Notes under the pieces: generated by a model
Told to the model about the DNA's origin: nothing
Seen by the model: only the letters and a program-made list of their open reading frames with translations
Database searches by the model: none
Assembly: GCA_016219005.1 (NCBI GenBank)
Contig: JACRCN010000054.1
Location: 17,519 to 81,518, forward strand
Length of the DNA stretch: 64,000 nucleotides
Source: Deltaproteobacteria bacterium
Lineage (GTDB): Bacteria; Desulfobacterota; Desulfobacteria; Desulfobacterales; SpSt-501
Direction: 5' to 3'
In this document: positions 4,824 through 37,164 of the stretch, in pieces
Numbering within the stretch: the first letter of the stretch is position 1
Layout: each line of letters opens with the position of its first letter
Program-made: the position numbers and the translations under genes

Positions 4824-4844
4824 TTGAGAGGCAGACATTCTCCT

Positions 4845-20519: not shown

Positions 20520-20570
20520 GCGTGCTCCTGTCACTTGATCGCGTTTGGCACGAAAAGCGTATCCGGTTGG

Positions 20571-23119: not shown

Positions 23120-23257
23120 ATACTGTCTGCCAATCCCCCAGCGGTGCAAGCCGGATCAGGCCTTCATCGCCAATCGGTCAATTTCATTTCATTGCAGGAG
23201 TGAAACCGAGCTGGCGGTCCATTTCGAGGAAATCCGCAAAGAGCCCGCTCCCTCTGA

Positions 23258-23815
23258 CTATTCCCGGCGGTATCTCATCCGCCCGTCACGGTAAAGGTCG
23301 TTGCCGCGCACATCGCCGACGACGATGGCGGGGAATTCCTCCACTTCCAGTCTTCGAATAGCCTCGGTGCCCAAATCCTCATAGGCCACGACCTCGGCGC
23401 GCTTGATCGTTTTGGATATCAGGGCTCCAGCGCCCCCGGTGGCGGCGAAATAGACCGCTCGGTACCGCTTCATAGCCTCGATTACCGCATCCCCCCGGGC
23501 GCCCTTGCCGATCATGCCCTTGAGGCCCTTTTCGATGAGAATCGGGGCGTACGGGTCCATGCGGTAGCTCGTGGTAGGGCCGGCAGCCCCGATGGGCATG
23601 CCGGGTTGCGGCGGAGTTGGGCCCACATAGTAAATAATTTGCCCGGCGAGGTCCATCGGGAGCGGGCGGTTTTCACGAATCAGCTCCACGAGACGCTTGT
23701 GAGCCGCATCGCGCGCGGAGTAGATGACCCCGCTGATTAGAACCCGGTCGCCTATCGCGAGTTTATCAACCGTATCGTCGGAAAGGGGGGGGTGGATGAC
23801 GACGCTGCCAGGCAT
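23258..23815 (-). CDS. Fe-S type hydro-lyase beta subunit (class I fumarase / tartrate dehydratase / mesaconase family)
   Basis: GVIYSARDAAHKRL, GPTTSYRMDPY, MIGKGARG, YFAATGGAGAL. Confidence 0.85.
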   Translation of the reverse strand: MPGSVVIHPPLSDDTVDKLAIGDRVLISGVIYSARDAAHKRLVELIRENRPLPMDLAGQIIYYVGPTPPQPGMPIGAAGPTTSYRMDPYAPILIEKGLKGMIGKGARGDAVIEAMKRYRAVYFAATGGAGALISKTIKRAEVVAYEDLGTEAIRRLEVEEFPAIVVGDVRGNDLYRDGRMRYRRE

Positions 23816-23834
23816 CGGTTAGCTCCTTGCTGGT

Positions 23835-24680
23835 CTAAATAATGGACTCTTTGTGACGGCCACTGTGGCATTGCAGATTGACGGCCACGGGGATGCTGCC
23901 GATATGAGTCGGGTAGGTTTCGATATGCACATCGAGGGCCGTGATCCGGCCGCCCAACCCTTGGGGGCCGATTCCCAGGTTGTTGATCTCTTTGAGGAGC
24001 TCCAATTCCAATTGGGAGATATCAGGGTTCGGATGGCGATGGCCAATCGGTCGCAGGAGAGATTCTTTGGAGAGAATGGCCGCTTTTTCCATCGTCCCGC
24101 CAATACCGACTCCGACCACAACCGGCGGGCACGGATTGGGTCCTGCGGCGTCGACTCGTCCCACCACGAATTTTTTAATGCCGTCGATTCCATGAGACGG
24201 CGGGAACAAGGCCACCTGGCTCATGTTTTCACTTCCGAAACCCTTGGCTGCCAGCGCCACCTTGATGCGATCTCCGGGAACAATGCGCGTGTGAATCACG
24301 GCCGGCGTATTGTCGCCAAAGTTCTTCCGGGTCAGTGGATCCAGAGTGGAGGCGCGCAGGTACCCGTCCCGATATCCCTGCCGCACTCCCTCGTTCACGG
24401 CTGTTTCGAGGTCTCCTCGCGTTAAATGGACATCCTGACCGATTTCGAGAAAGACTACGACCATGCCGGTGTCCTGACACAAGGGGATGCCTTCGGTCCG
24501 GGCAATATCCGCATTGCGGATCAACTGACGGAAGACGTCCTGGCCGACCGGGGATTCTTCGATGGCGAGCGATGTTTCCAACGCCGCCACCACATCGTCA
24601 CCAAGGATAGTATTGGCTTCGATACAGAGTCGGCGGACGACCTCGGTGATCCTGTCAACGGGAATTTCTCGAACCCCCAT
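23835..24680 (-). CDS. Fe-S type hydro-lyase alpha subunit (class I fumarase family)
   Basis: Motifs: CQDTGMVVVFLEIG, NTPAVIH, GFGSENMS, CPPVVVGVGIGG. I start at ATG 24680 (MGVREIPVD...). Confidence 0.85.
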   Translation of the reverse strand: MGVREIPVDRITEVVRRLCIEANTILGDDVVAALETSLAIEESPVGQDVFRQLIRNADIARTEGIPLCQDTGMVVVFLEIGQDVHLTRGDLETAVNEGVRQGYRDGYLRASTLDPLTRKNFGDNTPAVIHTRIVPGDRIKVALAAKGFGSENMSQVALFPPSHGIDGIKKFVVGRVDAAGPNPCPPVVVGVGIGGTMEKAAILSKESLLRPIGHRHPNPDISQLELELLKEINNLGIGPQGLGGRITALDVHIETYPTHIGSIPVAVNLQCHSGRHKESII

Positions 24681-24758
24681 ATCGATTGTCCTTTTGGCAG
24701 CTCCGCCGGTTTCACGTTCAGACTCGATCGTAGATATGCAACCCGTGATCTTCACGCC

Positions 24759-26735
24759 CTATGCGGTTGCGTATACTGGATTTTTATTCCGCGCCATTTG
24801 GAGCGATACAATCGCGCCCATTATGATCGCCCCGATCAGATCGGTGATCCAACCCGGTTTGATCAGGCATAAGGCTCCGACAAACAGCGCGACGCGCTCC
24901 CACCTGCTGCAACGCGTCAAAAGCCAACCTTGCACCGAACCCGCAAGCGCCGCCGTACCGAAACCGCCGGTGACAACTGCAAGAGCTATTTCCCACGGTT
25001 CGCCGATCAACACCATAGCGGGCCCTAAGACGAACATGTAAGGTATCAGGAAACCGCCAATAGCAAAACGCATCCCTTGCCATCCAACCTGCCAGCTGGG
25101 GGCGTTGGCGATAGCTGCAGCTGCAAAGGAGGCCAGAGCGACCGGAGGGGTCAATGCCGATAAGCATGCGAAATAGAAAATGAAGAGGTGAGCGGCGATG
25201 GGTGGAACCTGCATCTGGATCAGGGCCGGAGCTAAAACGGAAGCGCAGATGGCGTAGGCGGCGGTGGTTGGCATACCCATGCCGAGAATAATCGCAATGA
25301 TCATCGTGAAGAAGAGGGCAAGATATAGGTTTCCGCCCGAGTAATTAAAGATAATCATCGCAAATTTGGTCCCAAGCCCCGTCTGCGTCAGAACGCCCAC
25401 GATGATCCCGGCGGCTGCGCAGGTCGCAGCGATTTCCATGGATCCGCGAGCTCCTTTAGCCAATGTCCGGACGATTGCGGAGACTCCCATTCGAGTTGAA
25501 GGCTTGACCCAGCTGACGACGATAAGCGAGACGATGCCCAGCATCGCTGCCCGATAGGCCGACCAGTCGAAAACCATAAGAGACACCAGCAGAACCACGA
25601 TCGGTACCAGTAGGTATCCTTTTTCCGCCATGATTTTCCGAAAATCGGGCAGGTCTTCGCGACTGATCCCCTTGAGCCCGGCCGCGGCGGAGTAGAAATC
25701 GATCATCCAATAGGCTGCAAGAAAATAAAATAAGGCCGGGATGATGGCCGCAGTGGCGACCTTGGCGTACGGCACGGCGAGGATCTCGGCCATTAGGAAG
25801 GCGCCAGCTCCCATAACGGGCGGCATGACCTGCCCCCCTGAGGAATTCATGGCCTCGATCGCTCCAGCAACTGTAGCGCGATAGCCGCTAGCCTTCATCA
25901 GCGGGATGTTCAACACTCCGTCCACCACGACATTGGCTACGGACGATCCAGAGGCGGTGCCGATCAAGGCCGATGACAGGATGGAAACCTTAGCCGGTCC
26001 ACCCCGATAGCGCCCGGCAATGCAGCGCGCGAAATCCACAAAGAACCTTCCCGCCCCCGAAGATTCCACGAATGCTCCGAACAGAACAAAGAGGAAAATG
26101 TAGTGGGCTGATGCCTGGGTCGGCAGCCCTAAGATGCCATCTAAACTGAAGAGATAGGTGATCATCCGCTCCCAGTTGTACCCGCGGTGGTAAAACAAGC
26201 CTGGCATGTAGGATCCGAAATGCCCGTACAGGATGAAGGCCGCTGTCAAGAGAGCCAGCGGAAGCCCCGTCGCCCGGCGCGCCATCTCCCACACGGCCCC
26301 CACGAACATAAGGGAAATGACAAAATCCCAGGTCGTCGGCAGAACCCCTACCCGATAAATCCACTCGTCGAAATCGATAAAGATGTAAATGGCTGGTGCG
26401 ACCAAGATTCCAACAAAGATCCAGTCGACGACATGAACCCTGCACTTGTCCTTTTGCTTCCAGCCGGGGATCAGCAGGAACAGGAGCACACCGGCAAAAA
26501 CGACGTGCAGCGTTCGGAAGTACCACGGGTCGATGGCCCTGATCGTCAATACCCAAATATGAAATAGGCTCATGGCGAGACCAATGAGGAAAATCGCCAG
26601 CGCCAGAGGGCTGTTGGGTTTGAACTCACGCATGCCGCCGATCTCGAGGTCTTTGATGTTCATCTCCTCGAGTTTTCTTTCGACAATTTTGATGTCTACA
26701 GCTAACTCGTCGATGTTCGCCTTCCGCTCTGGCAT
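24759..26735 (-). CDS. TRAP transporter fused permease (4TM/12TM fusion, TAXI-associated type)
   Basis: 658 aa polytopic protein with typical stretches (GGPAKVSILSSALIGTASGSSVANVV, GGQVMPPVMGAGAFLMAE). It is adjacent to a TAXI receptor gene. Confidence 0.85.
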   Translation of the reverse strand: MPERKANIDELAVDIKIVERKLEEMNIKDLEIGGMREFKPNSPLALAIFLIGLAMSLFHIWVLTIRAIDPWYFRTLHVVFAGVLLFLLIPGWKQKDKCRVHVVDWIFVGILVAPAIYIFIDFDEWIYRVGVLPTTWDFVISLMFVGAVWEMARRATGLPLALLTAAFILYGHFGSYMPGLFYHRGYNWERMITYLFSLDGILGLPTQASAHYIFLFVLFGAFVESSGAGRFFVDFARCIAGRYRGGPAKVSILSSALIGTASGSSVANVVVDGVLNIPLMKASGYRATVAGAIEAMNSSGGQVMPPVMGAGAFLMAEILAVPYAKVATAAIIPALFYFLAAYWMIDFYSAAAGLKGISREDLPDFRKIMAEKGYLLVPIVVLLVSLMVFDWSAYRAAMLGIVSLIVVSWVKPSTRMGVSAIVRTLAKGARGSMEIAATCAAAGIIVGVLTQTGLGTKFAMIIFNYSGGNLYLALFFTMIIAIILGMGMPTTAAYAICASVLAPALIQMQVPPIAAHLFIFYFACLSALTPPVALASFAAAAIANAPSWQVGWQGMRFAIGGFLIPYMFVLGPAMVLIGEPWEIALAVVTGGFGTAALAGSVQGWLLTRCSRWERVALFVGALCLIKPGWITDLIGAIIMGAIVSLQMARNKNPVYATA

Positions 26736-26784
26736 ATCCGCCTCCGTTCATGCGGTTTGAGTGGTATATCTTGTGTGTGCGGTG

Positions 26785-26798
26785 ACGTTTGCAAACGT
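26785..26798. promoter_or_regulatory. Perfect 14-bp palindrome ACGTTTGCAAACGT in the TAXI-permease intergenic spacer
   Basis: acgtttgcaaacgt equals its own reverse complement. It lies between the TAXI stop (26847) and the permease start (26735). It could be an operator or an intercistronic RNA hairpin. Confidence 0.35.
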
Positions 26799-26846
26799 TC
26801 AGCTGTATACGCCTAATGAGCGCTCAAATCGTTTTGATCGGGTGTG

Positions 26847-27830
26847 CTATTTCGAAATCATCTTGTCCGAAAGCTGGATGCCTTTTTCCTTATAATACTT
26901 CACAGCGCCGGGATGCAGCGGGATGGGGCTATATACAATGCTCTCGATCTTAATCTCGGATGCGGATGGATGGGCAGCAATGAGGATGTCAATGTTTTCA
27001 AATGTCTTTTTGACGACCTCGTAGATAAAATCATCCGGGGTGTCCTTGTGGGCCGTCATAAAATTCCATACTGTTACAGTGTGCAGATCCACCTCTTTAT
27101 TGGCCTTGTAAGTCCCTTTAGGAATTACACCCGGCGACAGATAAGGGTATTTGGCGACACACTGCTCCACCTGCTCCTTGGACAGGGCAAAGACCGACAT
27201 CTCCTGGAGCACTTCCATTTCGGTGAGGCCGCCCCATGGGAGCCCGCTGATAGTAGCGACGGCATCAAGCATCCCATCCTTCATTTGCGAGCCCAGATCC
27301 GACCACCCGGCGTTCACAGTTCGTTTAGGCTTGACGCCCACCTCCTCGAATACGACGGGCCAGTAAACGGCCGGTGTCGTTCCGACCGCACCGATGCCGA
27401 CCGCTTTACCGCCCAGGTCCTTGACTTCCCTAATGCCCGTCTTCTTGGGGGCATAGGCATGGGCGTAGGACGTAAACATGGGGAATATGACTCGGACGTT
27501 CTGGTATTTTTCACCCTTTGCCCAACCTTGTCCGAACCAGCCTTCATAGATGGGAGCTGCCGTTGTAAGGCCGAAGTCCAGCTGCTTGGATGATACCAAC
27601 TTGACATTGGCGACCGGTCCGGCGGTGACTTCCACGGAGGCCTGGACCCCGACCTTGTCGTTTAGCAGTTTGGCGAATCCACCACCCCAGACGAAATAAA
27701 CTCCGCCGATACCGGATGTACCAATGGTCGCGCCCTTCGGCCAGCCGGCTTTGGTTTGGGCATTCGCAAAATCCATGATCATTGGAGTGCAAAGTAGCAG
27801 CAGCGTGATCACGAGGGTCAAACGTTTCAT
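26847..27830 (-). CDS. TAXI-family TRAP transporter solute-binding protein
   Basis: Signal peptide MKRLTLVITLLLLCTPMIMDFANA. TAXI-like GTSGIGGVYFVWGGGFAKLL and AHPSASEI. Confidence 0.85.
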   Translation of the reverse strand: MKRLTLVITLLLLCTPMIMDFANAQTKAGWPKGATIGTSGIGGVYFVWGGGFAKLLNDKVGVQASVEVTAGPVANVKLVSSKQLDFGLTTAAPIYEGWFGQGWAKGEKYQNVRVIFPMFTSYAHAYAPKKTGIREVKDLGGKAVGIGAVGTTPAVYWPVVFEEVGVKPKRTVNAGWSDLGSQMKDGMLDAVATISGLPWGGLTEMEVLQEMSVFALSKEQVEQCVAKYPYLSPGVIPKGTYKANKEVDLHTVTVWNFMTAHKDTPDDFIYEVVKKTFENIDILIAAHPSASEIKIESIVYSPIPLHPGAVKYYKEKGIQLSDKMISK

Positions 27831-27912
27831 TGCTAACCTCCTGTCTTTTGAGTGTTCTCATAAAATGGGCGCCGGATTATTTCGTTGCCCAGACTGAGGA
27901 TCCGGTTGCGGA

Positions 27913-28626
27913 TCACGTGAAATCTCTCTCCTTTGCCAACCCGACGAAGTGCGCCACATCGATATGCTTGGGACAGACATGCGAACAGGCTTTCGAAGTA
28001 TGGCAGCGGTAGACGCCCTCCTCGCTGTATAGCTGCTTGAGGCGGTCTTCCGTCGCATCTTCGCGGGGGTCCATGATGCGCACCACGCTGGCCATGACCG
28101 CGTTGGGCCCCAGAAATCCCTTGTGAGAGCTGATGCAGGCGGTGGCGCAGCAAAAGCAGTTGATGCAGCGGGTGGCATCCAGATAGCCCTCCATCCGGCG
28201 GGGGGAGATTCGATACTCCTGCCCCTGATTCGGGTTCTTGGACGGCTGGATGATGAAGGGGCGGATCCGATGAACCCGATCATAGGCCTTTTCCAGATCC
28301 ACCACCAAGTCCCGCAGCACCGGCGCCACGCTGATCGGTTCGATCGTAAAGGTGGTCGTTCCAAAATATACGACGGCGTTTTCAACGAGCAGCTCACAGG
28401 CCAGCATGGGCTTGCCGTTAATCACGACCGAGCAGGAGCCGCATTGAGCGTGCTCGCACGACGAGTTCCATGCGAGGGTCGGGTCCAATTCCTTGTTGAT
28501 TTTCCGCAGCACGTCGGTGAAGCGCAGGATGCGACCGGCCTCGATCCGATAGGTTTGCATCCAGGATTTGTGTGCCTCCGGATCGTGGCGCTTGATATTG
28601 AAAACCAGCGAATAGCTCTCCTTCAT
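27913..28626 (-). CDS. sdhB: Succinate dehydrogenase / fumarate reductase iron-sulfur subunit
   Basis: Three Cys clusters: SCEHAQCGSCSVVINGKPMLAC, CINCFCCATAC and CHTSKACSHVCP. Confidence 0.85.
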   Translation of the reverse strand: MKESYSLVFNIKRHDPEAHKSWMQTYRIEAGRILRFTDVLRKINKELDPTLAWNSSCEHAQCGSCSVVINGKPMLACELLVENAVVYFGTTTFTIEPISVAPVLRDLVVDLEKAYDRVHRIRPFIIQPSKNPNQGQEYRISPRRMEGYLDATRCINCFCCATACISSHKGFLGPNAVMASVVRIMDPREDATEDRLKQLYSEEGVYRCHTSKACSHVCPKHIDVAHFVGLAKERDFT

Positions 28627-28674
28627 GATGTTGCTCCGTATTTGGTTAAGAAATCGGGTCTTCAGGCATCAATC

Positions 28675-30471
28675 CTAATACTTCCGCTCGATCAGACCGA
28701 ATTTTTCATAGTTATCGCCTTTGGCCTCAAAAATGCTCATGTCGACGGGCCGACTCGCGAATTGGATTTTTCCGAATTCCGTCATGCACGCCAGGGTGTG
28801 CGCATTGAATTCATCGCGGCGCTGCGGGAAATCGACCCGGGCGTGGCCGCCGCGTGATTCCCGGCGCCGGAGGGCCCCCTGAGCGATCACCATGGATACG
28901 CTCAGGAGATTGTCGATCTCCCAGCGCTGCACCAGCTCCTGGTTCATTTGCAGGCTCCGGCAGCGGAGCGCGGCGCCGCGGACGCGTTCCGCGGAAACGG
29001 TTAAGGCGTGGATCGCCGTGTTCAGCCCTTCCTCCGCCCTGAACACCCCGACGTTTTCCGTCATCATGCGCCGCATGTCTTCGCGGATCTGGTCGATGTT
29101 CTCCTCTTTTTTATTCTCCAGATACCCGGCAAAACGGGAAAAGGTCTTATCACCAGCATCCGCGGGAAGACCTTCCGCTGCCTCGTCCATGGACAGGACG
29201 ACGCGCTCCCCGACAAAGCGCCCCATGGTGATCAGCTCCAGGATAGAGTTCGTCCCCAGGCGGTTGAAGCCGTGAAAGCTGGAGCAGCCGCATTCGCCGG
29301 CCGCATAGAGTCCGAATATGACCGTGTCGGGAGACCTCTGCACCTCTCCAAAAGCGTTGGTCGGGATTCCTCCCATCTGGTAGTGGTTGCTGGGCCTGAC
29401 CGGGCAAAGCTGTGTCCGGGGGTCCAGATTCATGAACTGCTTGAAAAACCCGCTGACCTCGGGGATCTGGACCTCGTGCACGTAATCGGAGAGGTGACGC
29501 AAGTCGATCCAGATATGCTCGATGTTGTGGTCCGGGTTCAGGATGCCGCGCCCCTCGCGGATTTCCGTTTCAATGGCACGGGCCACTAGATCCCGCGGCG
29601 CCAGCTCTTTCATTTTCGGCGCGTACCTGGCCATGAACGGATCCAATTCCTTGTTGCGCAGGATGCCGCCCACGGAACGGAGCGTCTCGCTGGCCAATAT
29701 CCCCGGACCCACAATGCCGGTGGGGTGAAATTGGACCGCCTCCATGTCAATCAGGGGCAGGCCGGCCTGCAGGGCGACGGCGTGGGCATCGCCGGTGTTC
29801 TGGCGGCAATTGGTCGTCACCCGAAAGACCTGGCCGCAACCGCCGGTAGCCAGTACCGTGGCCTTGGCTGAAACAGCCACGAACTCGCCCGTTTTCTCCA
29901 TGAACAGCACGGCCCCGACGCAACGGTCGTTCCGAATAAGCAATTCGGTCAGAAGCGTTTGATCCAGAAAGGCCACTCCGCCCTTGAGGGCTTCCCCCCA
30001 CACGTTGTCCATGATGCCCTTGCCCGTGCGGTCGGCTTCGAACACGGCCCGGAAAGCCGACGCCTCGCCGAAACGCACCGTGTGGCCTCCGAAGGTCCGC
30101 TTGCTCAAGCGCCCTTCCTCGTCCCGGGTGAAGTGCATGCCCCTGTTTTCCAGCCAGACGATTTCCTCCCAGGCCGCATCGACGATCTTCTGGACCACAT
30201 CTTGGTCCGCCATGCAATCGGAACCCTTCCAGGTGTCAAACATATGATAGATGGGTCTGTCCACGGCGTCTTTGGGATCTACCGCCGCAAGGCCCCCCTG
30301 AGCCGTGCTGGTGTGAGATTTTTGGGGATGCGAAACCTTGGTCACCGCAATGATATGGGTCCCGGGGCGTTTTTCCAGGATGTGGGCGGCGCATCGGAGA
30401 CCGGCACCCCCCGCCCCGATGATGAGCACGTCGCATTGGATCGTGGAAGACAACTTGAACTTTTTTTGCAT
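28675..30471 (-). CDS. sdhA: Succinate dehydrogenase / fumarate reductase flavoprotein subunit
   Basis: DVLIIGAGGAGLRCA; SHTSTAQGG, the covalent-FAD His context; HYQMGGI; RRESRGGHARVDFP. Confidence 0.9.
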   Translation of the reverse strand: MQKKFKLSSTIQCDVLIIGAGGAGLRCAAHILEKRPGTHIIAVTKVSHPQKSHTSTAQGGLAAVDPKDAVDRPIYHMFDTWKGSDCMADQDVVQKIVDAAWEEIVWLENRGMHFTRDEEGRLSKRTFGGHTVRFGEASAFRAVFEADRTGKGIMDNVWGEALKGGVAFLDQTLLTELLIRNDRCVGAVLFMEKTGEFVAVSAKATVLATGGCGQVFRVTTNCRQNTGDAHAVALQAGLPLIDMEAVQFHPTGIVGPGILASETLRSVGGILRNKELDPFMARYAPKMKELAPRDLVARAIETEIREGRGILNPDHNIEHIWIDLRHLSDYVHEVQIPEVSGFFKQFMNLDPRTQLCPVRPSNHYQMGGIPTNAFGEVQRSPDTVIFGLYAAGECGCSSFHGFNRLGTNSILELITMGRFVGERVVLSMDEAAEGLPADAGDKTFSRFAGYLENKKEENIDQIREDMRRMMTENVGVFRAEEGLNTAIHALTVSAERVRGAALRCRSLQMNQELVQRWEIDNLLSVSMVIAQGALRRRESRGGHARVDFPQRRDEFNAHTLACMTEFGKIQFASRPVDMSIFEAKGDNYEKFGLIERKY

Positions 30472-30568
30472 CTGACAATCTCCAGCGTATCGGCAGGTCC
30501 TGGTTCGGAATACGTCTCAAGGCACCATCGTCTCAACCGACATCCACGCGAACCCGTCGTGAGCGGGC

Positions 30569-31396
30569 TCAGATCGCTATCACCAACTTCAGGCCGGCCC
30601 AGGCGGCGACCATCATGGCGGCGATAACCGCTGCCATGCCGGCCATCCGCAGTTCTTTCGAGGCGGCGTAATCCTTCAGGATCGAGATCAGGCCATAGCT
30701 GCCGTGGTAAAGGGCGGAAGCCAGGAGGGCCATATCAACCAGTTTGATCCACAGGTTCTGCATTCGCAGCGCCACCTGACCGGCGTCCTTGGCGACCTGA
30801 GGGCTCAGGTGCATGAACAGAAAATGGGCCGGCACCATCACCAGAAGAAAAGCACCGCTGATCCGCTGGAGCTTCCAGCTTAAGCGATGCGGAGTGCGCC
30901 AGATGCGGGCAAAGAGGCCATAGGCCGCGGACAATGCGGCCGCTGCCGCCATCAGCCAGAAGAACCCTGCGGATACGTTCTGGTTGCCCATCCGCATCAG
31001 CACGGCCAGAAGTCCAGCGTAGAGAATGGACAGGCCGGCCACCCATTTCAGCAGCACCTCGTCGCCCCGGAAGCGAAAGCTCTCATACAGGGTGAGCCGC
31101 CCGCCGTTCAACGCATGGAAGATGACCGGTAAGGCCAGCGCCCACTCGATGAAAGCGAAAACAGGCAGCTCGTATAGCTTCATCTTGTCGGCATACGCAC
31201 CGGCCGGCACGAGAAACGACAGGGTGTAAATATGGAACCAGGTAAAAAGGACCAGCAACACTCCGGATAGCCGGTGGGCCCAACTGATGATAAACGGCAG
31301 CCCCCGGTTACGGGTGCAGCGGGCGAGCGGAGGTATCATGTCCAGCAGCCTGAAAAAACCTTTATCGATTCCATTTCCGGAAGTGCGAGCGATCAT
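30569..31396 (-). CDS. SDH/FRD membrane anchor, apparent SdhC-SdhD fusion (cytochrome b type)
   Basis: The N-half has SWAHRLSGVLLV and FHALNGG (SdhC-like). The C-half has LQRISGAFLLVMVPAHF and YHGSYGLISILKDY (SdhD-like). About six hydrophobic helices in one 275-aa ORF. Confidence 0.65.
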   Translation of the reverse strand: MIARTSGNGIDKGFFRLLDMIPPLARCTRNRGLPFIISWAHRLSGVLLVLFTWFHIYTLSFLVPAGAYADKMKLYELPVFAFIEWALALPVIFHALNGGRLTLYESFRFRGDEVLLKWVAGLSILYAGLLAVLMRMGNQNVSAGFFWLMAAAAALSAAYGLFARIWRTPHRLSWKLQRISGAFLLVMVPAHFLFMHLSPQVAKDAGQVALRMQNLWIKLVDMALLASALYHGSYGLISILKDYAASKELRMAGMAAVIAAMMVAAWAGLKLVIAI

Positions 31397-31420
31397 CTGA
31401 TTCCTCTTTTCCCGACGCCT

Positions 31421-32182
31421 TCAACTGAATTTCTTCTTGATCGGCATGCGCCGTACCCGCTTGAAGGGGACCGGCTCCGCGGGCCCCTCAATTTTCTCCT
31501 GCGCATCGAGGTAGCCCATGAACTTATTGACGGCCTCGTCGATGTGATTTCTCACCACCGCTTCAAGCTTAGCCGGATCGGTGTTCTTGTTTTTGAAAAG
31601 CCCCAGTATTTCTTCATGGGTCCGGTAGGATTTTTTGAAGTCCTCCTGGTAATACTGGTAGGACAGCCGATACCACATGATCTGCATCCGCAGGATTTTC
31701 ACCAGGTTGATCAGCAGTCGATTTCCACTGCTATCGATGAAAATCTCATGAAAGAGAATATGCTGCTTCCAGTAATTCTTCGCATCTCCGTTTTCAGCGG
31801 CAACTTTCATTCGAGCGAGCGCCCGCTCCATCATCTCGAGCGTGCTGGCGTTCATGTTCGGATAGGCCTGTTTGGCGGCGAGCCCCTCGAGCACCGATCG
31901 GACCGGGAAATGCTCCTCAATATCCCGAGGGAAAATGCGTTTGACAAAAGTACCTTTGCGCGGGACAACCTCCACCAGGCCTTTTTTCTCGAGCACCCGA
32001 AAAGATTCTCGAATGGGGGTCCGGCTGATGCCGAACTGCTTCTGCAGATCGACTTCAATCAACTGGTCTCCCTCCTTGAAAATCCCTTCCAGGATGGCCT
32101 CGGTCAGCGTCTCGGAAAGTTTTTCCACCAGCCCGGTCGGTCTGAAATCAATGCTTCTGAGCTTGGATGCCAGTTTTTCCAT
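31421..32182 (-). CDS. GntR-family transcriptional regulator with FCD ligand domain
   Basis: GISRTPIRESFRVLEKKGLVEVVPRKGTFV is a winged HTH. The C-terminal helical domain has FCD-like His residues (HILFHEIF, THEEIL). Confidence 0.85.
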   Translation of the reverse strand: MEKLASKLRSIDFRPTGLVEKLSETLTEAILEGIFKEGDQLIEVDLQKQFGISRTPIRESFRVLEKKGLVEVVPRKGTFVKRIFPRDIEEHFPVRSVLEGLAAKQAYPNMNASTLEMMERALARMKVAAENGDAKNYWKQHILFHEIFIDSSGNRLLINLVKILRMQIMWYRLSYQYYQEDFKKSYRTHEEILGLFKNKNTDPAKLEAVVRNHIDEAVNKFMGYLDAQEKIEGPAEPVPFKRVRRMPIKKKFS

Positions 32183-32241
32183 TTCTGCAATCCTTCGCCT
32201 CCAGCGAGCACCCGCTCCGCCGGCAGCCTCTGCGGCCGGGA

Positions 32242-32469
32242 TCAGGCCTCGTACAATTTCCGGATGGTGATGGCCTCAGGACCACAGGACTGAAGACAAC
32301 GTTCGCATAGAATACATTCATCCAGATTTTTTTCCACCACCGCCGGCTTGTCGCCGCTCTTCTGAAAAATGCTCACGGGGCAGACCCGAACACACCCCCC
32401 GCATCGGGCAAGGCCTGCACAGGCGGCCATATCCACTTCCACAACAATGAACTCGCTGGGTGAACTCAT
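32242..32469 (-). CDS. Small 2x[4Fe-4S]-type ferredoxin
   Basis: Two Cys clusters, CAGLARCGGCVRVCP and CILCERCLQSCGP, in 75 aa. Confidence 0.8.
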   Translation of the reverse strand: MSSPSEFIVVEVDMAACAGLARCGGCVRVCPVSIFQKSGDKPAVVEKNLDECILCERCLQSCGPEAITIRKLYEA

Positions 32470-32596
32470 GACGCGTAAACTCCTTTCACAATCAGGAACT
32501 TTCTCTTAAATTCCACGCTGCATCCCAAATCGTCGTCGCAAGCCCGGTCTGGGATGGCTTCTTTTAAATGGTTTCCAGGATGACCGCGGGTTTCGT

Positions 32597-33493
32597 CTAA
32601 CCGATCGATTCCCCCACCCGAATGATCCTGCGGCAACGCTCCACCACGGGATAGTCGATGAACTTGCCGTCCAGTTGCAGCGCCCCAATCCCTTCGGCTT
32701 CACTTTTCTCGAAAGCCCCCACCACCCGACGGGCATATTGAATCTCTTCGGCGGTGGGTGAAAAAATCTCGTTGCAAGGCCCGACTTGATTGGGATGGAT
32801 GCAAAGCTTGCCCTGAAAACCGAGCTGCTTGGCCCGGCGAGCATCGGTCTTGAGGCCATCCAGGTCCTTCAGGTCGATCATAAAAGGAGTGTCGATCGGC
32901 GGCTCCCGTCCGGCCGCCCGACATGCCACCGCGATCCGGGACCGGGGGTAGTGCAATTCCGCGCCGTCTCGGCTGATGTCGATACCCATGTCCAAACTGT
33001 AATCGGCCGCACCGAAGGCCGCTAAAAACGCGCGGGCCGGACCGGGCGCTTCGGACAATATCCGGAAAATGTTTTGAACCCCCCGCGCCGACTCTATCAA
33101 CGCCACCACGCCCAACGATCCCGGCGGCATGCCACAGTGACGTTCGCAGCCCAGCAGGCGTTCGTGAATCTCCCGGATATGTTCGCCGGATTCCACTTTG
33201 GGCAGCATGATGCCGGCCGGTGCCGCGCCTACGATCGCTTGAAGATCGCTCTGGTTGTGCCCGCTGCCCAGTGCATTCACACGCACCATGAGCCTTCGTG
33301 ACGCGTGCTCCATCACCTTCTTCCGCGCGGTTTCCCGTGCTTCGCCTTTCAGCGTCTGGGCCACGGCATCCTCCAGGTCGATGATAACCACATCCGCACC
33401 CGCGTCCAACGCCTTGTCGACACGGTCGGGCCGTGTGGCCGGCACAAAGAGTGCTGTTCGTAACGGGCCGATCGGTTTCATTTCATTCCTCAT
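32597..33493 (-). CDS. HpcH/HpaI-CitE family acyl-CoA lyase (malyl-/beta-methylmalyl-/citramalyl-CoA lyase-like)
   Basis: RTALFVPATRPDRVDKAL, VIIDLEDAV, GFQGKLCIHPNQV. The start overlaps the stop of the SucD-like gene by 4 nt. Confidence 0.8.
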   Translation of the reverse strand: MRNEMKPIGPLRTALFVPATRPDRVDKALDAGADVVIIDLEDAVAQTLKGEARETARKKVMEHASRRLMVRVNALGSGHNQSDLQAIVGAAPAGIMLPKVESGEHIREIHERLLGCERHCGMPPGSLGVVALIESARGVQNIFRILSEAPGPARAFLAAFGAADYSLDMGIDISRDGAELHYPRSRIAVACRAAGREPPIDTPFMIDLKDLDGLKTDARRAKQLGFQGKLCIHPNQVGPCNEIFSPTAEEIQYARRVVGAFEKSEAEGIGALQLDGKFIDYPVVERCRRIIRVGESIG

Positions 33494-34383
33494 AGATAGC
33501 GTTTCGCAATATCGACGATCTCAGAAAAGGATTCCGCCACGTGGATTCCGGCCTTTCGGAACATCTCGATTTTGCTCTTCGTGGTGCCTCGATCTCCCTC
33601 GACAATCGTGGCCGCATGGCCAAAACGAACTCCCGGCATGTTGTCTACAAATCGGCCGGCGATGAAACCGATGATCGGAATCGACAGCTTCTCGGCCATG
33701 ACCAATTCCGAGAGTTTTTCTTCGATGACCCCGCCGGGCTCGCTGAAAAGCACCACGACCTTGGTCTCCGGATCCCGGTCAAACAGGGGGATCAAATCCA
33801 GGAAATTGGATCCCACCACCGGGTCTCCTCCAATTCCGATGCAGGTGCTCTGTCCGATGCCCCGGGTGGTCAGCAGGTTGGCGATTTCGGTGGTCATGCC
33901 ACCGCTGCGAGAGGCGATACCCACCGGCCCCGGCATGTAGGCTTTGCGAACATCGGCGGCCGGCCCGCCCGCCATTCCCAGTCTGACCTTTCCCGGAGAT
34001 ATCAGCCCCAGGGTGTTCGGGCCGATGACCCTGGCGTTCCGGGATTTAGCCACTTCCAGGAATTCAATCGTGTCCTTGCGCGGCACCCGTTCGGATACCA
34101 CCACCGCCAAGGTAATACCATTATCCAGGGCCTCGATCACCGCGTCCTTGACCAGGGCCGGCGGCACCGATATCACCGCCGCCTCAGCCGGATGGTCCCG
34201 CAACGCCTGGCGGACGGTGTCGTAAACCGGAACGCCGTGAACGCGTTGCCCCCCTTTACCCGGGGTGATGCCGGCGACGACCTTCGTGCCGTAGTCCAGC
34301 ATGTCTTTGGTGAAGGAGGTTGCTTCCCTTCCGGTGATACCTTGTACAATAACCTGAGTATGTTCATCGGCTAAAATGGCCAC
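33490..34383 (-). CDS. Succinyl-CoA-synthetase alpha-subunit-like protein (acid-thiol ligase, CoA-binding subunit)
   Basis: VIVQGITGREATSF, SRSGGMTTE, IGIGGDP, and FGHAATIV, the phosphohistidine context. Confidence 0.8.
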   Translation of the reverse strand: MAILADEHTQVIVQGITGREATSFTKDMLDYGTKVVAGITPGKGGQRVHGVPVYDTVRQALRDHPAEAAVISVPPALVKDAVIEALDNGITLAVVVSERVPRKDTIEFLEVAKSRNARVIGPNTLGLISPGKVRLGMAGGPAADVRKAYMPGPVGIASRSGGMTTEIANLLTTRGIGQSTCIGIGGDPVVGSNFLDLIPLFDRDPETKVVVLFSEPGGVIEEKLSELVMAEKLSIPIIGFIAGRFVDNMPGVRFGHAATIVEGDRGTTKSKIEMFRKAGIHVAESFSEIVDIAKRYL

Positions 34384-34416
34384 TGCCTGCCCCCTCTCTA
34401 TGGCGATGATCAGCGA

Positions 34417-35598
34417 TTAGTGGGTGTTTGTTACGGCGATCCTGGCGGCCTCGTCGATGGAAACCGTTCGGTCCTGAATTGGGACTCCATATTTCGACAA
34501 TATTTTATGGCCTTCCTCTTCCCACGCCCCGGGCACCCTGAAAACGGCAACCGTTTGGGCCGGATTCTTACCGGACTCGAGAATACCTTTGACAATCCCG
34601 CGGGCCATCATATCGACCCGAGTGTTGCTGACCACATTCATGATGACGGCAATTTTATCAACCCCCGGCTTGGAAAGAATCAGCCGGGTCAGCTCCTTGA
34701 CCTTGAGCACGGATGGATTGCCGCCGACTTCACAATAATTGGCGGGCCGCCCGCCATGGGCCCGAATGGCATCGAAAGCGGTCAGAGATGCCCCGCCGCC
34801 GCCGATGATGAGGCCCAGGTTGCCGTCAAACTCGATCACCCGTCCAGCCACCCCGCGGTGGTCCAGGTTGTCGATGTTGAAAGCCAGCCGCTCAAAATCC
34901 GACATGCGCCGTTCGCCCTCGACCCGGCCGGTGTCCTTTTCCATGGCCGCGATGTCGGCATGCCGCGGCACGGCGTCGTCGTCGATCTCCAGATGGCAAT
35001 CCAAGGCGACGAGACGCCCGTCATCCATCAGCGCGAGCGGATTGACTTCAACCACCGTTGCATCATAGTCCAGGAAGACCTCCGCGATGGTGGCCAGCGC
35101 GACAGACAATCCGAGGAGTAATTTTCCGGAGACTCCGGCTTCGGCGACGATCTCGCGGGCCCGGTGGAGCGGCAACCGAGAGTGAACCGTGAAATGCTCC
35201 TTGCGGACGAGAGCCGGCTTGCGCTGCGCCAATTCCTCTATGTCCACTCCCCCCTCAGCCGAAAAAATAGCCACCGGTGCTTTGGCCACGGTGTCGTAGG
35301 TGATGCCCATGAAGAACTCCTGCTTCACGGCTTTTTTTTCTTCCATGTAGACGGCTTTCGGGATGTATCCCCGGATGTTGCTCTTCAGCAGATGCGAGAC
35401 CTTCTGCCGGGCCTCTTCGGCCTGCGTGGCGGCGAGGATGCCTCCCGCCTTTCCGCGTCCACCGATCGGAATTTGCGCTTTGAGCATGACGGGCCCATCG
35501 ATCGTCAGAGGTTCGCCTTGGCCTACCAACCTCCCGACCGGCAGAGCAATCCGGTACTTTTCCAATATTCGTTTGGATTCGTGTTCAAGCAGCCTCAT
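34417..35598 (-). CDS. Succinyl-CoA-synthetase beta-subunit-like ATP-grasp protein (divergent from canonical SucC)
   Basis: MRLLEHESKRILEKYRI, GGRGKAGGI, VEVNPLA, HGGRPANYCEVGGNP. Several canonical SucC stretches are altered (IIGGGGASLTAFD in place of MVNGAGLAM). Confidence 0.75.
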   Translation of the reverse strand: MRLLEHESKRILEKYRIALPVGRLVGQGEPLTIDGPVMLKAQIPIGGRGKAGGILAATQAEEARQKVSHLLKSNIRGYIPKAVYMEEKKAVKQEFFMGITYDTVAKAPVAIFSAEGGVDIEELAQRKPALVRKEHFTVHSRLPLHRAREIVAEAGVSGKLLLGLSVALATIAEVFLDYDATVVEVNPLALMDDGRLVALDCHLEIDDDAVPRHADIAAMEKDTGRVEGERRMSDFERLAFNIDNLDHRGVAGRVIEFDGNLGLIIGGGGASLTAFDAIRAHGGRPANYCEVGGNPSVLKVKELTRLILSKPGVDKIAVIMNVVSNTRVDMMARGIVKGILESGKNPAQTVAVFRVPGAWEEEGHKILSKYGVPIQDRTVSIDEAARIAVTNTH

Positions 35599-35652
35599 CG
35601 CATTCTCCTAAAAATAAGTTGTGGCGGGTTCAGTCCGCCGCCCTCTCCGGTC

Positions 35653-37005
35653 TCACCGCGTCAGAAGCCTCGATACATCGGGTGCACTTTCCAACGCCAT
35701 GACCCGTTGGCAGAGCGCCTCCGCCCAGGCGTCCGTGATCAGCCCCCGCGTGAGCGACTTGAATTTTCCAAGCACTTCGGATTCGCTCAGGGGGTTTTCG
35801 GGATCGCCCTTCGGATAGTCGGCGGCCCCTGTCAGACGCTCGCCCGAACGCATGACGATTTCCACCCGCGCCGGCCACTTCCGCGGGTAGGCGGCACTCA
35901 GTTCCGGATCGGACCGGATCTCAATTTTCGGCATCATCCGTTTCATCTCGGGATCCCGAATCCGCTCGAGCGTAAAGTCCGCCACGTTGGCATGCCCGAA
36001 CCTCAGGGCCGAGGCCACACAAAATGGCAGGTTGAATTTGGCCAAATAGGGGGTTGTGGGCTCGATGTTCATCAGCAGGTCCAGGCTGCCCTGGTAAAGC
36101 GAGACGCTGACGCGTTCTACGTCTTGCGGGGCGAGGGCGGCCCCGTGGGTGGCCTGCAGCACCGCATCAATGGCGGAATGCGTGTGCCCGCACGAGGCGT
36201 GGTATTTGATGGAATTGCGTTCGAAATAAAATTCCTTGCCCAACTTGGCCAGGCATTTGGCCCCGTCAAAATCGCCGGAAGTGGCTTTGAAAAATCCTTT
36301 TTCTCCTTCCAGAATCCTGCGCGCGCCCGTGAATCCCCTCTGGGCCAAAAGCGCTGAAAGCAGCCCATTGAGCGCCGCCTTTCCCGGATGCAGCTGCTTG
36401 CTCATGGCATTGTTCGTCAAAAACTCCCATAGACCGCCGGCCTGCGTCCCCGCCGACCCATAGGCGGAGATGGTCTGCTCCTCATCCAATCCGAGCAGCC
36501 GGGCGGCACCGGCGGCGGCCCCAAACGTTCCGCAGGTGGCCGTGGTATGCCAGAATCGGTAGTGACTCGGGCCGACGCCGAGAGCCACCCGGATGGCCGC
36601 CTCGTAGCCCACGGCGATGGCCAGCAAAACGTCCGCCCCGCTGGCCTTCTCACGCTCGGCCAGCGCAAACACCGCCGGAATAATCGCGGCCGCCGGATGC
36701 AAAATGGACTCGCGATGCAGATCGTCCATTTCCATCACGTGGGAGGAAGCCCCATTGGCCAGCGCCGCCAAAAGGCAGTTGCCAAGGGATTGACTTGCAA
36801 TGATGGTGGATTCCGGCGTGCCCCCCAGATCACGGATGAGGTCCAGGATGATCCGGACTGGTTTTTCGCCTTTCCCGGCGATCGCCGACCCGAGCCAGTC
36901 CAGGAAATAAATTTTGAGTTTTTTCACCTGGCACTGGGTAAGATCATGGTAGGACAGGCGCGCGAGGAATGCTCCAAGCTCGGCGGAAATGGTGGGTTCG
37001 TGCAT
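35653..37005 (-). CDS. MmgE/PrpD-family protein
   Basis: I start at ATG 37005, preceded by CAGGAGA. Typical family stretches: ANGASSHVMEMDD, HPAAAIIPA, YRFWHTTATCGTFGAAAGA. The 53 upstream codons of the ORF track begin at the TTG of a TTGACA promoter hexamer. Confidence 0.85.
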   Translation of the reverse strand: MHEPTISAELGAFLARLSYHDLTQCQVKKLKIYFLDWLGSAIAGKGEKPVRIILDLIRDLGGTPESTIIASQSLGNCLLAALANGASSHVMEMDDLHRESILHPAAAIIPAVFALAEREKASGADVLLAIAVGYEAAIRVALGVGPSHYRFWHTTATCGTFGAAAGAARLLGLDEEQTISAYGSAGTQAGGLWEFLTNNAMSKQLHPGKAALNGLLSALLAQRGFTGARRILEGEKGFFKATSGDFDGAKCLAKLGKEFYFERNSIKYHASCGHTHSAIDAVLQATHGAALAPQDVERVSVSLYQGSLDLLMNIEPTTPYLAKFNLPFCVASALRFGHANVADFTLERIRDPEMKRMMPKIEIRSDPELSAAYPRKWPARVEIVMRSGERLTGAADYPKGDPENPLSESEVLGKFKSLTRGLITDAWAEALCQRVMALESAPDVSRLLTR

Positions 37006-37130
37006 GGTGAGAGTCTCCTGCGTTGCGACCATGGGTGTTCGTATAAGATCAATCCGTCGAACGTGCGCCGGAACCGGAGCGCGCACCCGCGTGATCGTCC
37101 GATCATCACGGATCACCACGATCCGATCTA

Positions 37131-37164
37131 TGTCGACAATATACAATCGTCCACCATATGTCAA
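37131..37164 (-). promoter_or_regulatory. Candidate sigma70 promoter with adjacent TGTCGACA palindrome upstream of the PrpD-family gene
   Basis: The minus strand reads TTGACA (37164..37159), a 15-nt spacer, TATATT (37143..37138), then immediately the 8-bp palindrome TGTCGACA (37138..37131). The spacer is shorter than optimal. Confidence 0.35.

Follow-up and report, generated by a model that had tools for sequence, protein, structure and literature searches.

A conserved gene cluster of uncultured Desulfobacterota with a possible role in the degradation of methylsuccinate or another 2-substituted succinate

Introduction

Which acid is broken down by a regulated gene cluster that places a complex-II dehydrogenase beside a thiokinase, a CitE-type lyase and an MmgE/PrpD-family protein? 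The question is raised by the genes at 23258-37005 of a 64,000-nucleotide stretch of contig JACRCN010000054.1 (assembly GCA_016219005.1, Deltaproteobacteria bacterium, an organism of the sulfate-reducer type), which is called the window throughout and to whose numbering all coordinates without a locus label refer. From sequence comparison we propose, with a confidence somewhat short of an even chance, that the cluster is a GntR-repressed operon for a 2-substituted succinate, in which (R,S)-methylsuccinate would be converted to mesaconate, citramalate, citramalyl-CoA and finally pyruvate and acetyl-CoA. Methylsuccinate is the product of anaerobic itaconate respiration (bioRxiv 10.1101/2022.12.26.521950) and has recently been recognised as commonly formed when itaconate is reduced anaerobically and as supporting the growth of aerobic Pseudomonadota, which use it via a CoA-ester route; the anaerobic use of itaconate- or methylsuccinate-type acids is stated to be unknown (PMC12290011).

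Thirteen co-directional genes make up the cluster

The cluster consists of 13 genes, all on the minus strand according to the listing of open reading frames (ORFs) and their translation, which were assigned to families by Pfam and NCBIfam profile searches against curated cut-offs. In transcription order they are:

35653-37005, minus strand: MmgE/PrpD-family protein, 450 aa (Pfam MmgE_PrpD_N and MmgE_PrpD_C)
34417-35598, minus strand: SucC-like beta subunit (Pfam Citrate_bind, 29.4 against a cut-off of 26.8)
33490-34383, minus strand: SucD-like alpha subunit (Pfam CoA_binding, Ligase_CoA, Succ_CoA_lig)
32597-33493, minus strand: CitE/HpcH-family lyase (Pfam HpcH_HpaI, 154.6 bits)
32242-32469, minus strand: ferredoxin, 75 aa, 8 Cys, 2x[4Fe-4S] type (Pfam Fer4 families)
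31421-32182, minus strand: GntR/FCD regulator (Pfam GntR and FCD)
30569-31396, minus strand: fused SdhC-SdhD anchor (residues 35-103, TIGR02970, 59.6, cut-off 52.3; second half, residues 173-271, TIGR02968, 45.6, cut-off 41.8)
28675-30471, minus strand: SdhA flavoprotein, complex-II type (TIGR01812, 573.8, cut-off 567.3)
27913-28626, minus strand: SdhB iron-sulfur subunit (TIGR00384, 192.6, cut-off 88; Pfam Fer2_3, Fer4_8)
26847-27830, minus strand: TAXI-type TRAP solute-binding protein (TIGR02122, 228.5, cut-off 84.35)
24759-26735, minus strand: fused TRAP permease, DctQM type (TIGR02123, 666.9, cut-off 320.65)
23835-24755, minus strand: FumA-type alpha subunit of class I fumarate hydratase (NF004885, 408.2, cut-off 276)
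23258-23815, minus strand: FumB-type beta subunit of class I fumarate hydratase (NF005310, 271, cut-off 238)

These families and their common strand are those given by the original prediction, which had been made from the letters of the stretch alone, and the 4-nt overlap that it reported between the SucD-like and CitE-like genes is found at 33490-33493. It had also let the set end at 23258, and the genes there are real, but the co-directional string runs further downstream. Likewise, the lower GC content that it saw in the TAXI (0.536) and TRAP (0.559) genes exists but is modest, the GntR (0.521) and ferredoxin (0.548) genes being equally low. The gaps between genes in the string range from -4 to 127 nt, and the PrpD-like gene starts with the ATG at 37005, giving a protein of 450 aa, the same length as its homologues. 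An identical copy of the region is known from one metagenome assembly only.

The cluster is a two-module system conserved among relatives

Relatives were collected by scanning one genome per species with an alignment of the SucC-like protein. The scan returned 80 loci, referred to by L numbers, and at least 585 stretches in it carry the motifs of the SucC-like family. Gene orders were established by tblastn of all window proteins against the related loci and by ORF clustering. Eighteen related loci with full flanks, mostly from metagenome-assembled genomes (MAGs) of the Desulfobacterota/Desulfobacterales type, belong to a close clade in which the SucC-like protein is 58-94% identical to the window copy, and the order that recurs is PrpD-like, SucC, SucD, CitE, ferredoxin, GntR, SdhCD, SdhA and SdhB. 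SucD and the ferredoxin are encoded in 18/18 of these loci and the CitE-like lyase in 16/18, while SdhA is present in 13/18, the PrpD-like protein, the GntR regulator (in the same position) and SdhCD in 12/18 each, and SdhB in 11/18; one third of the close-clade loci have the thiokinase, lyase and ferredoxin genes without any succinate dehydrogenase (SDH). From these per-gene counts and the gene orders across loci it follows that the system has two modules, a universal one (thiokinase, ferredoxin-like protein and CitE-type lyase) and a Desulfobacterota one (SDH, PrpD-like protein and GntR). Since the synteny of the core is held in many species-level genomes, the arrangement is more than chance.

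The transporter beside the core varies: an MFS transporter in L004-L007, a Liv-type ABC transporter in others, DctPQ in L089, and TAXI-TRAP in the window only. Together with the conserved core and the operator found on the promoter (see below), this exchange of transporters bears out the idea of a dedicated catabolic unit under its own regulator. Three complete MAG chromosomes carry the cluster (OY764894.2, CP070746.1 and CP070694.1), and no cultured or characterised relative was found among the matches of the protein search and the genome scan, which are MAGs or metagenomes with generic names only.

A conserved palindrome lies on the promoter of the first gene

Generic searches for repeats and palindromes inside the window yielded nothing usable as an operator; a candidate emerged from the comparison of upstream regions across relatives. 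It overlaps the following site, about 130 nt 5' of the PrpD-like ATG:

37129-37164, minus strand: promoter-like site (TTGACA at 37164-37159, 17-nt spacer, TATTGT at 37141-36)

With 10 of 12 positions, this is the best sigma-70-like match within 19-38.5 kb. The candidate GntR operator, ATTGTCGACATA at 37140-37129, and a conserved 19-nt block, CGATTGTATATTGTCGACA at 37149-37131, both overlap the -10 element. The same block precedes the first gene of the cluster in L002, L009, L010, L011, L021, L024, L089 and L090, eight loci in which the flanks around it are fully diverged and range from GC-rich to AT-rich. Its core is a perfect palindrome, ATTGTCGACAAT, of the GT...AC form, a form typical of FadR-type GntR operators. 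Allowing at most one mismatch, we count 19 copies of ATTGTCGACAAT in about 1.4 Mb of related loci, where about one would be expected; most of them stand directly 5' of a PrpD-like or SucC-like gene, and in L021 additional copies face divergent fumarase genes. The candidate target sequence of the GntR protein is ATTGTCGACA(AT). The protein itself has a winged helix-turn-helix and an FCD domain and, with the GT...AC palindrome on the -10 element as its putative operator, shows the features of a GntR/FadR-type (FCD) system. We infer, with good support, that it controls the operon, presumably as a repressor. No terminator-like sites were detected between the genes: those found are at chance level and all intragenic, and for this reason give no operon boundaries.

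The thiokinase belongs to a CCS-like family that lacks a citrate-binding arginine

The SucC-like beta subunit scores below both succinyl-CoA synthetase (SCS) models (TIGR01016, 245.4 against 375.55; NF001913, 238.1 against 370) as well as the malate thiokinase model (NF010647, 175.2 against 604), and the alpha subunit falls short of the SCS-alpha models (299 against 336 and 353). The pair is thus divergent, as had been predicted, and not an ordinary SCS. In the C-terminal domain of the beta subunit Citrate_bind is above its cut-off (29.4 vs 26.8) and Ligase_CoA (PF00549) below (23.0 vs 24.5). In the controls, SucC of E. coli and of Thermus matches Ligase_CoA only (107 and 77 bits), and CcsA, from the citryl-CoA synthetase (CCS) of Hydrogenobacter, matches Citrate_bind only (49 bits). 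Three other members of the family also match Citrate_bind only, L021 above the cut-off and L055 and L041, from a distant clade, below it. Alignment with CcsA (6hxq_B) further revealed a common insertion (DHRG-AG; IDNLDHRGVAGRVIEFDG vs IDRDDHRGKAGSYVEVDG) and the common motifs NTR(V/I)D and GGNP; SCS is without the insertion and the motifs. These CCS-type motifs are near-invariant across the family, from Desulfobacterota to Actinomycetota. Model scores and domain controls together lead us to reject a housekeeping SCS, which was considered, as the identity of the thiokinase.

The citrate site of human ATP-citrate lyase (ACLY) is made up of residues 280-281, 307-310, 343-348 and 379 (PMC11365397), the identities of which were taken from PMC9504748. 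By eye, ACLY V377-R378-R379-G380-G381-P382 corresponds to VRRNGP of CcsA. Where CcsA has VRRNG, the family has FR(V/I)PG, which means that the second Arg (ACLY R379) is Val or Ile throughout, as it is missing in SCS; in the beta subunit of the window, the position of ACLY N346 is Ser. Because the citrate-binding Arg is replaced family-wide, citrate is unlikely as the substrate and a dicarboxylic hydroxy acid is favoured. We read the beta subunit as a CCS-like scaffold probably adapted to such an acid rather than to citrate. The alpha subunit, which is closest among solved structures to archaeal SCS alpha (270 bits; CcsB, 207 bits) and whose translation includes the CoA-binding domain and the GHA phosphohistidine motif, is by these features an ordinary SCS-type alpha.

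Many members of the family are labelled 'succinyl-CoA synthetase beta subunit/citryl-CoA synthetase large subunit' by JGI. In a distant clade (Chloroflexota, Solirubrobacterales, Binatia and Myxococcota) the thiokinase genes share an operon with a longer CitE/Mcl-like lyase, and nearby are genes for mesaconyl-CoA hydratase (PF19315), an acyl-CoA dehydrogenase, a B12 mutase and CoA ligases or transferases; the chemistry predicted for this neighbourhood is that of C5-branched dicarboxyl-CoA esters. No dedicated itaconate-, mesaconate-, citramalate- or methylsuccinate-CoA ligase was found in the literature, and a literature search for CCS in combination with CitE and ferredoxin gave general papers on the reductive tricarboxylic acid (TCA) cycle only.

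A ferredoxin-like gene accompanies the thiokinase

In 64 of the 64 loci with enough sequence, which belong to several phyla, a ferredoxin-like gene is located 3' of SucD, often at a distance of 0-30 nt and in L091 with a 4-nt overlap, and its translation is often coupled to that of SucD. The ferredoxin had been listed as one member of the cluster, and it is present; however, it is more than incidental, since it is invariably linked to the thiokinase family. The copies of Desulfobacterota have 8 Cys. Outside this phylum, in Chloroflexota and Actinomycetota, four Cys are lost and the CPV and CxxCxxC motifs are kept, and in the distant clade the remaining Cys are enough for one cluster. Motifs that extend beyond the Cys residues are also kept in the family (F-I, CPVxIF, NlDECxLCxLC and a C-terminal KLY). 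The protein looks like a dedicated partner of the thiokinase and may be a third subunit of it. To our knowledge, a composition with a small ferredoxin-like third subunit is not known for SCS, CCS or ACLY.

The PrpD-like protein carries the residues of an epimerase and tracks the dehydrogenase

The PrpD-like protein is far below the PrpD equivalogs (NF042438, 45 against 950; NF006943, 20 against 575), and among solved structures it comes closest to IDS epimerase (158 bits) and B. subtilis 'IRG1' (146 bits), with 2-methylcitrate dehydratase and cis-aconitate decarboxylase (CAD) more distant. The PrpD-family gene of the Pseudomonas itaconate cluster, to which the original prediction had assigned no known role, now has one: in Pseudomonas and Cupriavidus its product is an (S)-(R)-methylsuccinate isomerase (Msi) with a His/Tyr two-base mechanism (PMC12290011). 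The carboxylate-binding and catalytic set in IDS epimerase comprises H85, D88, H99, Y145, H150, K198 and K266 (PMC12290011). In the window protein, H89, E92, H103, Y149, H153 and two Lys align with the IDS epimerase/Msi set; the Asp/Glu position is Glu, as in Msi, and the Tyr that serves as second base is present, where CAD has Pro. The set is kept in both subtypes of PrpD-like protein found in related clusters. As the window protein keeps the catalytic set of Msi, the substrate is narrowed towards a chiral 2-substituted succinate.

Across the 18 close-clade loci the PrpD-like protein and SDH are both present in 11 and both missing from 5, with 2 discordant loci. This tracking places the function of the PrpD-like protein at the dehydrogenase step. 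An epimerase makes sense for a chiral substrate only, which favours methylsuccinate or another 2-substituted succinate over succinate and tricarballylate. The protein is proposed, from its residues, to be of the IDS-epimerase/methylsuccinate-isomerase type and to act as an isomerase for the substrate of the dehydrogenase.

Different genes adjoin the PrpD-like gene in individual relatives. A Na+-translocating decarboxylase beta gene (OAD_beta) is located divergently upstream of it in L002 (7034-8179) and L089 (3802-4947), and VOC/glyoxalase genes together with a LUD-domain or SDR gene are found upstream of it in L007 (18124-20454) and also in L011 and L024. Just upstream of it in L009 and L090 (2479-6990) are a second GntR gene and the genes for an 805-aa glycyl-radical enzyme and its activase, none of which occurs in the window; L090 has a TAXI gene further upstream of the glycyl-radical genes. 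The glycyl-radical enzyme was considered as an X-succinate synthase and rejected: it is of the HypD/PFL2 eliminase type and below all named equivalog cut-offs (HypD, 762 bits against 1100), and the one cut-off that it passes is that of the broad PFL2-3 subfamily (681 against 678).

The dehydrogenase is of the complex-II family and probably of the oxidising type

SdhA is found with its catalytic flavoprotein residues and with SdhB and the fused SdhC/SdhD anchor beside it, that is, with the components of complex II. It keeps the His that binds FAD covalently and the equivalents of E. coli H242, E255, R286, H354 and R399, and is closest among solved structures to Sdh of M. smegmatis (410 bits; E. 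coli SdhA, 384 bits). At the SdhA-Q50/FrdA-E49 position it has Gln, which we take, from the E. coli enzymes, to mark the succinate-oxidising type. The score against the 'forward' housekeeping equivalog (sdhA_forward, TIGR01816) is 529.2, below the cut-off of 727.35, and clade-specific changes are seen near the active site (LASETLRSVGG for LVTEGCRGEGG, PSNHY for PTCHY and HGFNRL for HGANRL). We propose that the complex is a (methyl)succinate:quinone dehydrogenase, as far as its sequence can tell.

In L026 and L028, two Proteobacteria MAGs, the order SucC-SucD-(CitE)-ferredoxin is followed by a lone SdhA-like flavoprotein of 35% identity, in which the Glu is of the Frd type (SHSCAAEGG) and which stands without SdhB and SdhCD partners. 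This flavoprotein might have the ferredoxin as its redox partner.

The lyase is a core component and the hydratase and transporter are accessory

The CitE-like lyase matches PF03328 with 154.6 bits over the full profile (1-221 of 221) and PF15617 in its C-terminal part, and the DxED, IES and AADY motifs were seen by inspection. It scores below the cut-offs of the subfamilies, namely citE (TIGR01588, 201.9/443), RipC_Ccl (196.5/375) and Mcl (62.5/500). Among solved lyases it is closest to citramalyl-CoA lyases from itaconate clusters (P. aeruginosa Ccl, 152 bits; Yersinia RipC, 141), followed by CitE (131) and Mcl (128), and the protein is proposed to be a citramalyl-CoA (or malyl-CoA) lyase.

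Both FumAB subunits are above the fumarate hydratase equivalog cut-offs and the tartrate dehydratase models are below theirs; the proposed function is that of a mesaconase/fumarase. The true start of FumA may be about 25 codons inside the ORF, the call in the identical contig L001 being 281 aa. Fumarase genes are linked to the cluster in 2-3 of the 18 loci (L021, L032 and L089). TAXI occurs in 0/35 related loci, and the TRAP permease has one weak match, in L023, at about 27% identity. The fumarase and TAXI-TRAP genes, which had been counted among the constituents of the cluster, are instead accessory parts, and TAXI is lineage-specific. The closest solved relative of the TAXI protein is a glutamate-specific TAXI at 137 bits only, which does not allow its ligand to be inferred.

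A free-acid route is proposed and weighed against other readings

Gene identities, synteny, the conservation of the operator, the sets of catalytic residues and the CCS-type acid domain are observations; we infer the substrate, the direction of flux and the order of the steps, together with any role of the ferredoxin and of two downstream gene products, a second flavoprotein and a DHDPS-like protein. The four conserved enzyme types fit a general scheme in which a 2-R-succinate would yield a 2-R-fumarate, a 2-R-malate, its CoA ester and finally acetyl-CoA and R-CO-COOH, and the order dehydrogenation, hydration, CoA activation and cleavage, already put forward in the original prediction, is still the best fit to them. 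R = CH3 is favoured by the epimerase-type PrpD-like protein linked to SDH, the absence of the citrate Arg, the C5 neighbourhood of the family, the relatives of the lyase and the useful products. For methylsuccinate, the acid would be imported by the transporter (TAXI-TRAP in the window; MFS, ABC or DctPQ in relatives) and its enantiomers interconverted by the PrpD-like protein through the His/Tyr two-base mechanism. The membrane-bound SdhCD-A-B would then oxidise the accepted enantiomer to mesaconate, passing electrons to the quinone pool, and a class I Fe-S hydratase, the linked FumAB in the window or a copy elsewhere in most relatives, would hydrate mesaconate to (S)-citramalate. Finally, the CCS-like ADP-forming thiokinase with its ferredoxin-like partner would convert citramalate to citramalyl-CoA, spending one ATP, and the CitE-like lyase would split it into acetyl-CoA and pyruvate. 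The substrate would stay a free acid until the last two steps.

Several observations weigh against this proposal. The F119L adaptation of E. coli SdhA is not mirrored, as the SdhA clade keeps Phe, and with this position unchanged SdhA offers no positive methylsuccinate signature. The PrpD-like protein shares only 28% identity with IDS epimerase and 30% with B. subtilis 'IRG1' (partial reference sequences), and bona fide Msi always adjoins a methylsuccinyl-CoA dehydrogenase (PMC12290011); the window cluster has no acyl-CoA dehydrogenase, and the partner is the complex-II SDH. The CitE-like protein is about equidistant from the Ccl, CitE and Mcl references, and since the hydratase is linked in few loci, most genomes would have to supply it from an unlinked gene. 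The scheme assigns no role to the ferredoxin, the second flavoprotein, the DHDPS-like protein and a reductase-like protein; the last two would suit the handling of glyoxylate, in favour of a C4 substrate. Every relative found is an uncultured MAG.

A C4 route of this kind, which we consider decidedly unlikely, would lead from succinate (or imported fumarate or malate) via fumarate and L-malate to malyl-CoA and on to acetyl-CoA and glyoxylate, with an MtkAB/Mcl-like module of another thiokinase lineage and with glyoxylate passing to the DHDPS-like aldolase and the reductase-like enzyme. Succinate and fumarate appear to be fully within the capacity of SdhA and FumAB. Cleavage of malyl-CoA is known for lyases of the CitE family, and the adjacency of thiokinase and lyase is the pattern of the serine cycle, both of which fit this route. 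The absence of the Arg for a third carboxylate suits malate as well as citramalate, and the recurrent DHDPS-like gene and the reductase-like gene after it belong to families that include glyoxylate- and pyruvate-handling enzymes. The lyase-thiokinase operon is moreover near PEPCK in Actinomycetota, and in Actinomycetota and Chloroflexota near mesaconyl-CoA hydratase, like a lower pathway of the ethylmalonyl-CoA type that ends in malyl-CoA. Yet succinate is achiral, which leaves the association of an epimerase-type PrpD-like protein with SDH unexplained, and glyoxylate is a poor catabolic product for an anaerobe able to use malic enzyme; glyoxylate carboligase and malate synthase are not present in the window, and the malate thiokinase model is far from reached (175 against 604). 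The achirality of the substrate also speaks against a C6 route from tricarballylate (2-carboxymethyl-succinate) or aconitate, in which aconitate, citrate and citryl-CoA would lead to oxaloacetate and acetyl-CoA, the thiokinase being a CCS, with citryl-CoA cleaved by the CitE-like protein and aconitate hydrated or isomerised by the PrpD-like protein. The CCS-type acid domain and motifs, the 'citryl-CoA synthetase large subunit' label given by JGI to many family members, the origin of CitE as a citryl-thioester lyase (TIGR01588 being marginally the best NCBIfam match, 202 bits) and the aconitate-acting members of the PrpD family (NCBIfam names; CAD) all point that way. However, all members have Val or Ile in place of the citrate-binding Arg and the window protein has Ser for ACLY N346, the PrpD-like protein has the epimerase-type Tyr that is absent from CAD, and the neighbours of the family in other phyla belong to C5-CoA chemistry; we regard the C6 route as very improbable.

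Since the general scheme accepts any R group, the substrate could also be another 2-substituted succinate (ethyl-, hydroxylated, sulfur-substituted or itaconate-derived), or the direction could be partly reductive, mesaconate or itaconate accepting the electrons and the CoA ester yielding ATP; we think this unlikely, if still worth keeping in view. By docking, the pocket of Msi may accommodate larger substituents (PMC12290011). Depending on the relative, the cluster is accompanied by VOC/glyoxalase, LUD, CMD, HD or DUF1847 genes. A VOC protein also adjoins Msi in the itaconate cluster of P. aeruginosa, and in L009 and L090 the glycyl-radical enzyme is directly upstream; the Frd-type Glu of the L026 and L028 flavoprotein would suit the reductive direction. 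Still, the accessory genes are not conserved among loci, positive evidence for any particular alternative was not found, and the window SdhA has the oxidation-type Gln. What we find hardly credible is that ordinary succinate-fumarate-malate and succinyl-CoA enzymes of the TCA cycle or of the methylmalonyl-CoA propionate pathway are clustered here by chance, the alternative that the original prediction had named. SdhA, SdhB and FumAB do pass the general family cut-offs and keep their catalytic residues, but the beta subunit of the thiokinase falls below the SCS models and its acid domain is not of the SCS type, and the CitE-like and PrpD-like proteins are core members without a role in those pathways. 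A pathway-specific GntR gene inside the operon, with its conserved operator candidate, the swapping of the adjoining transporter between relatives and the third of close-clade loci that carry the thiokinase-lyase-ferredoxin module without SDH likewise leave that alternative unsupported.

The proposed route differs from known systems

With the itaconate-methylsuccinate cluster of Pseudomonas and Cupriavidus (Ict, Ich, Ccl, Mcd and Msi; PMC12290011) the window shares the His/Tyr set of a PrpD-family isomerase, a CitE-family lyase and, as expected end products, acetyl-CoA and pyruvate. Some relatives have a VOC gene beside the PrpD-like gene, as PA0880 stands beside the methylsuccinate isomerase gene PA0881 in P. 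aeruginosa. In contrast, the window cluster is without a CoA transferase, a MaoC hydratase and an acyl-CoA dehydrogenase: the free acids themselves would be oxidised and hydrated, by complex II and class I fumarase, and CoA would come last, by an ATP-dependent thiokinase. The hosts differ as well, since the window belongs to the anaerobic Desulfobacterota and 96% of known Msi are found in Pseudomonadota (PMC12290011).

The acid-level chemistry has a precedent in E. coli, where Sdh has a basal methylsuccinate dehydrogenase activity that gives mesaconate, FumA hydrates mesaconate to citramalate and SdhA acquired F119L for better use of methylsuccinate (bioRxiv 10.64898/2026.01.16.699985). An engineered acid-level module of Sdh F119L, FumA and citramalate lyase was described as novel in the same report. 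It shares with the proposed route a complex-II dehydrogenase acting on methylsuccinate, followed by a class I fumarase as mesaconase; it differs in being synthetic and in its citramalate lyase, which yields acetate and pyruvate, whereas the window combines a thiokinase with a CoA-ester lyase, giving acetyl-CoA, adds an isomerase and has Phe at F119. The MtkAB-Mcl system of the serine cycle similarly places an ADP-forming SucCD-type thiokinase next to a CitE-family lyase and obtains acetyl-CoA from a 2-hydroxy-dicarboxylate, but the beta subunit of the window thiokinase is of a separate lineage (175 against 604 on the MtkA model) with motifs of the CCS type, and the enzyme has a ferredoxin-like protein as its obligate partner. 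The DHRG-AG insertion, NTR(I/V)D, GGNP and the Citrate_bind-type domain are common to Hydrogenobacter CcsAB (PDB 6hxq), which acts with CCL; here, however, the second Arg of VRRNGP is Val or Ile, the lyase is of the CitE type and not of the citrate-synthase type, and the setting is a catabolic, GntR-regulated operon with transporters rather than the reductive TCA cycle. Finally, the mesaconate pathway of clostridial glutamate fermentation also has a class I Fe-S hydratase that converts mesaconate to (S)-citramalate and a CitE-type beta subunit that cleaves the C-C bond, but its lyase is an acyl-carrier-protein complex and it has no thiokinase, SDH or PrpD-like protein.

Taken in full, the proposal amounts to a natural free-acid methylsuccinate pathway in anaerobic Desulfobacterota with a PrpD-type isomerase, a complex-II methylsuccinate:quinone dehydrogenase, a class I mesaconase and a citramalyl-CoA lyase as its proposed parts, and with a new ADP-forming citramalate-CoA ligase that needs a ferredoxin-like third subunit; in this complete form we hold it to be doubtful. 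If true, it would be the first natural acid-level route for methylsuccinate, so far known from engineered E. coli only, and it would give a function to a very large thiokinase family that pipelines now label succinyl-CoA synthetase, to a complex-II paralogue and to one more branch of the MmgE/PrpD family, which is poorly characterised. The role of the ferredoxin-like protein that invariably accompanies the thiokinase forms a question of its own and can be put to a direct test.

Genes downstream and in the surroundings of the cluster

The co-directional string continues downstream of the fumarase genes with:

21467-23149, minus strand: NadB/TfrA-like soluble flavoprotein (Pfam FAD_binding_2, Succ_DH_flav_C; NCBIfam models all below cut-off)
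20571-21470, minus strand: DHDPS-like protein, pyruvate-dependent class I aldolase type (Pfam DHDPS; dapA, 152 against 206)
19602-20534, minus strand: tartronate-semialdehyde-reductase/3-hydroxyisobutyrate-dehydrogenase-like protein (Pfam NAD_binding_2, NAD_binding_11; NCBIfam equivalogs below cut-off)
16711-19527, minus strand: 938-aa Ccr-like enoyl-reductase/crotonase fusion (TIGR01751, 168 bits, cut-off 378)

The flavoprotein and DHDPS-like genes overlap by 4 nt. In this second flavoprotein the covalent-FAD His is missing, Tyr replaces H242 and there is no Thr-Glu pair; for these reasons fumarate reductase and L-aspartate oxidase, which were considered as its identity, are rejected. The order FumA-FumB-flavoprotein-DHDPS is the same in the window (20571-24755) and in L089 (14426-17835), where the block runs convergently to the core. 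In all, five loci have the DHDPS-like gene, directly 3' of SdhB in L009, L030, L036 and L090 and in the fumarase block of L089, and its product matches an uncharacterised structural-genomics protein (PDB 3eb2) with 424 bits. The reductase-like gene follows 36 nt downstream on the same strand and has one weak match among relatives (L032, 39%); we assign it to the system tentatively. In none of the relatives was the 938-aa fusion seen next to the cluster.

Farther to the left, the window carries a homologue of the LarA-like nickel-pincer 2-hydroxyacid (malate) racemase, below cut-off (13206-14534), a PdxA-like dehydrogenase (12013-13188), a GatZ/KbaZ-like protein (15440-16732, plus strand) and an 852-aa ORF (4695-7253, plus strand) in a stretch of about 70% GC, for which NCBIfam gave no match at E <= 1e-10. 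Housekeeping genes (MurJ, LeuRS, RNase E/G, SecD and TopA) occupy the right half of the window and indicate a chromosomal setting.

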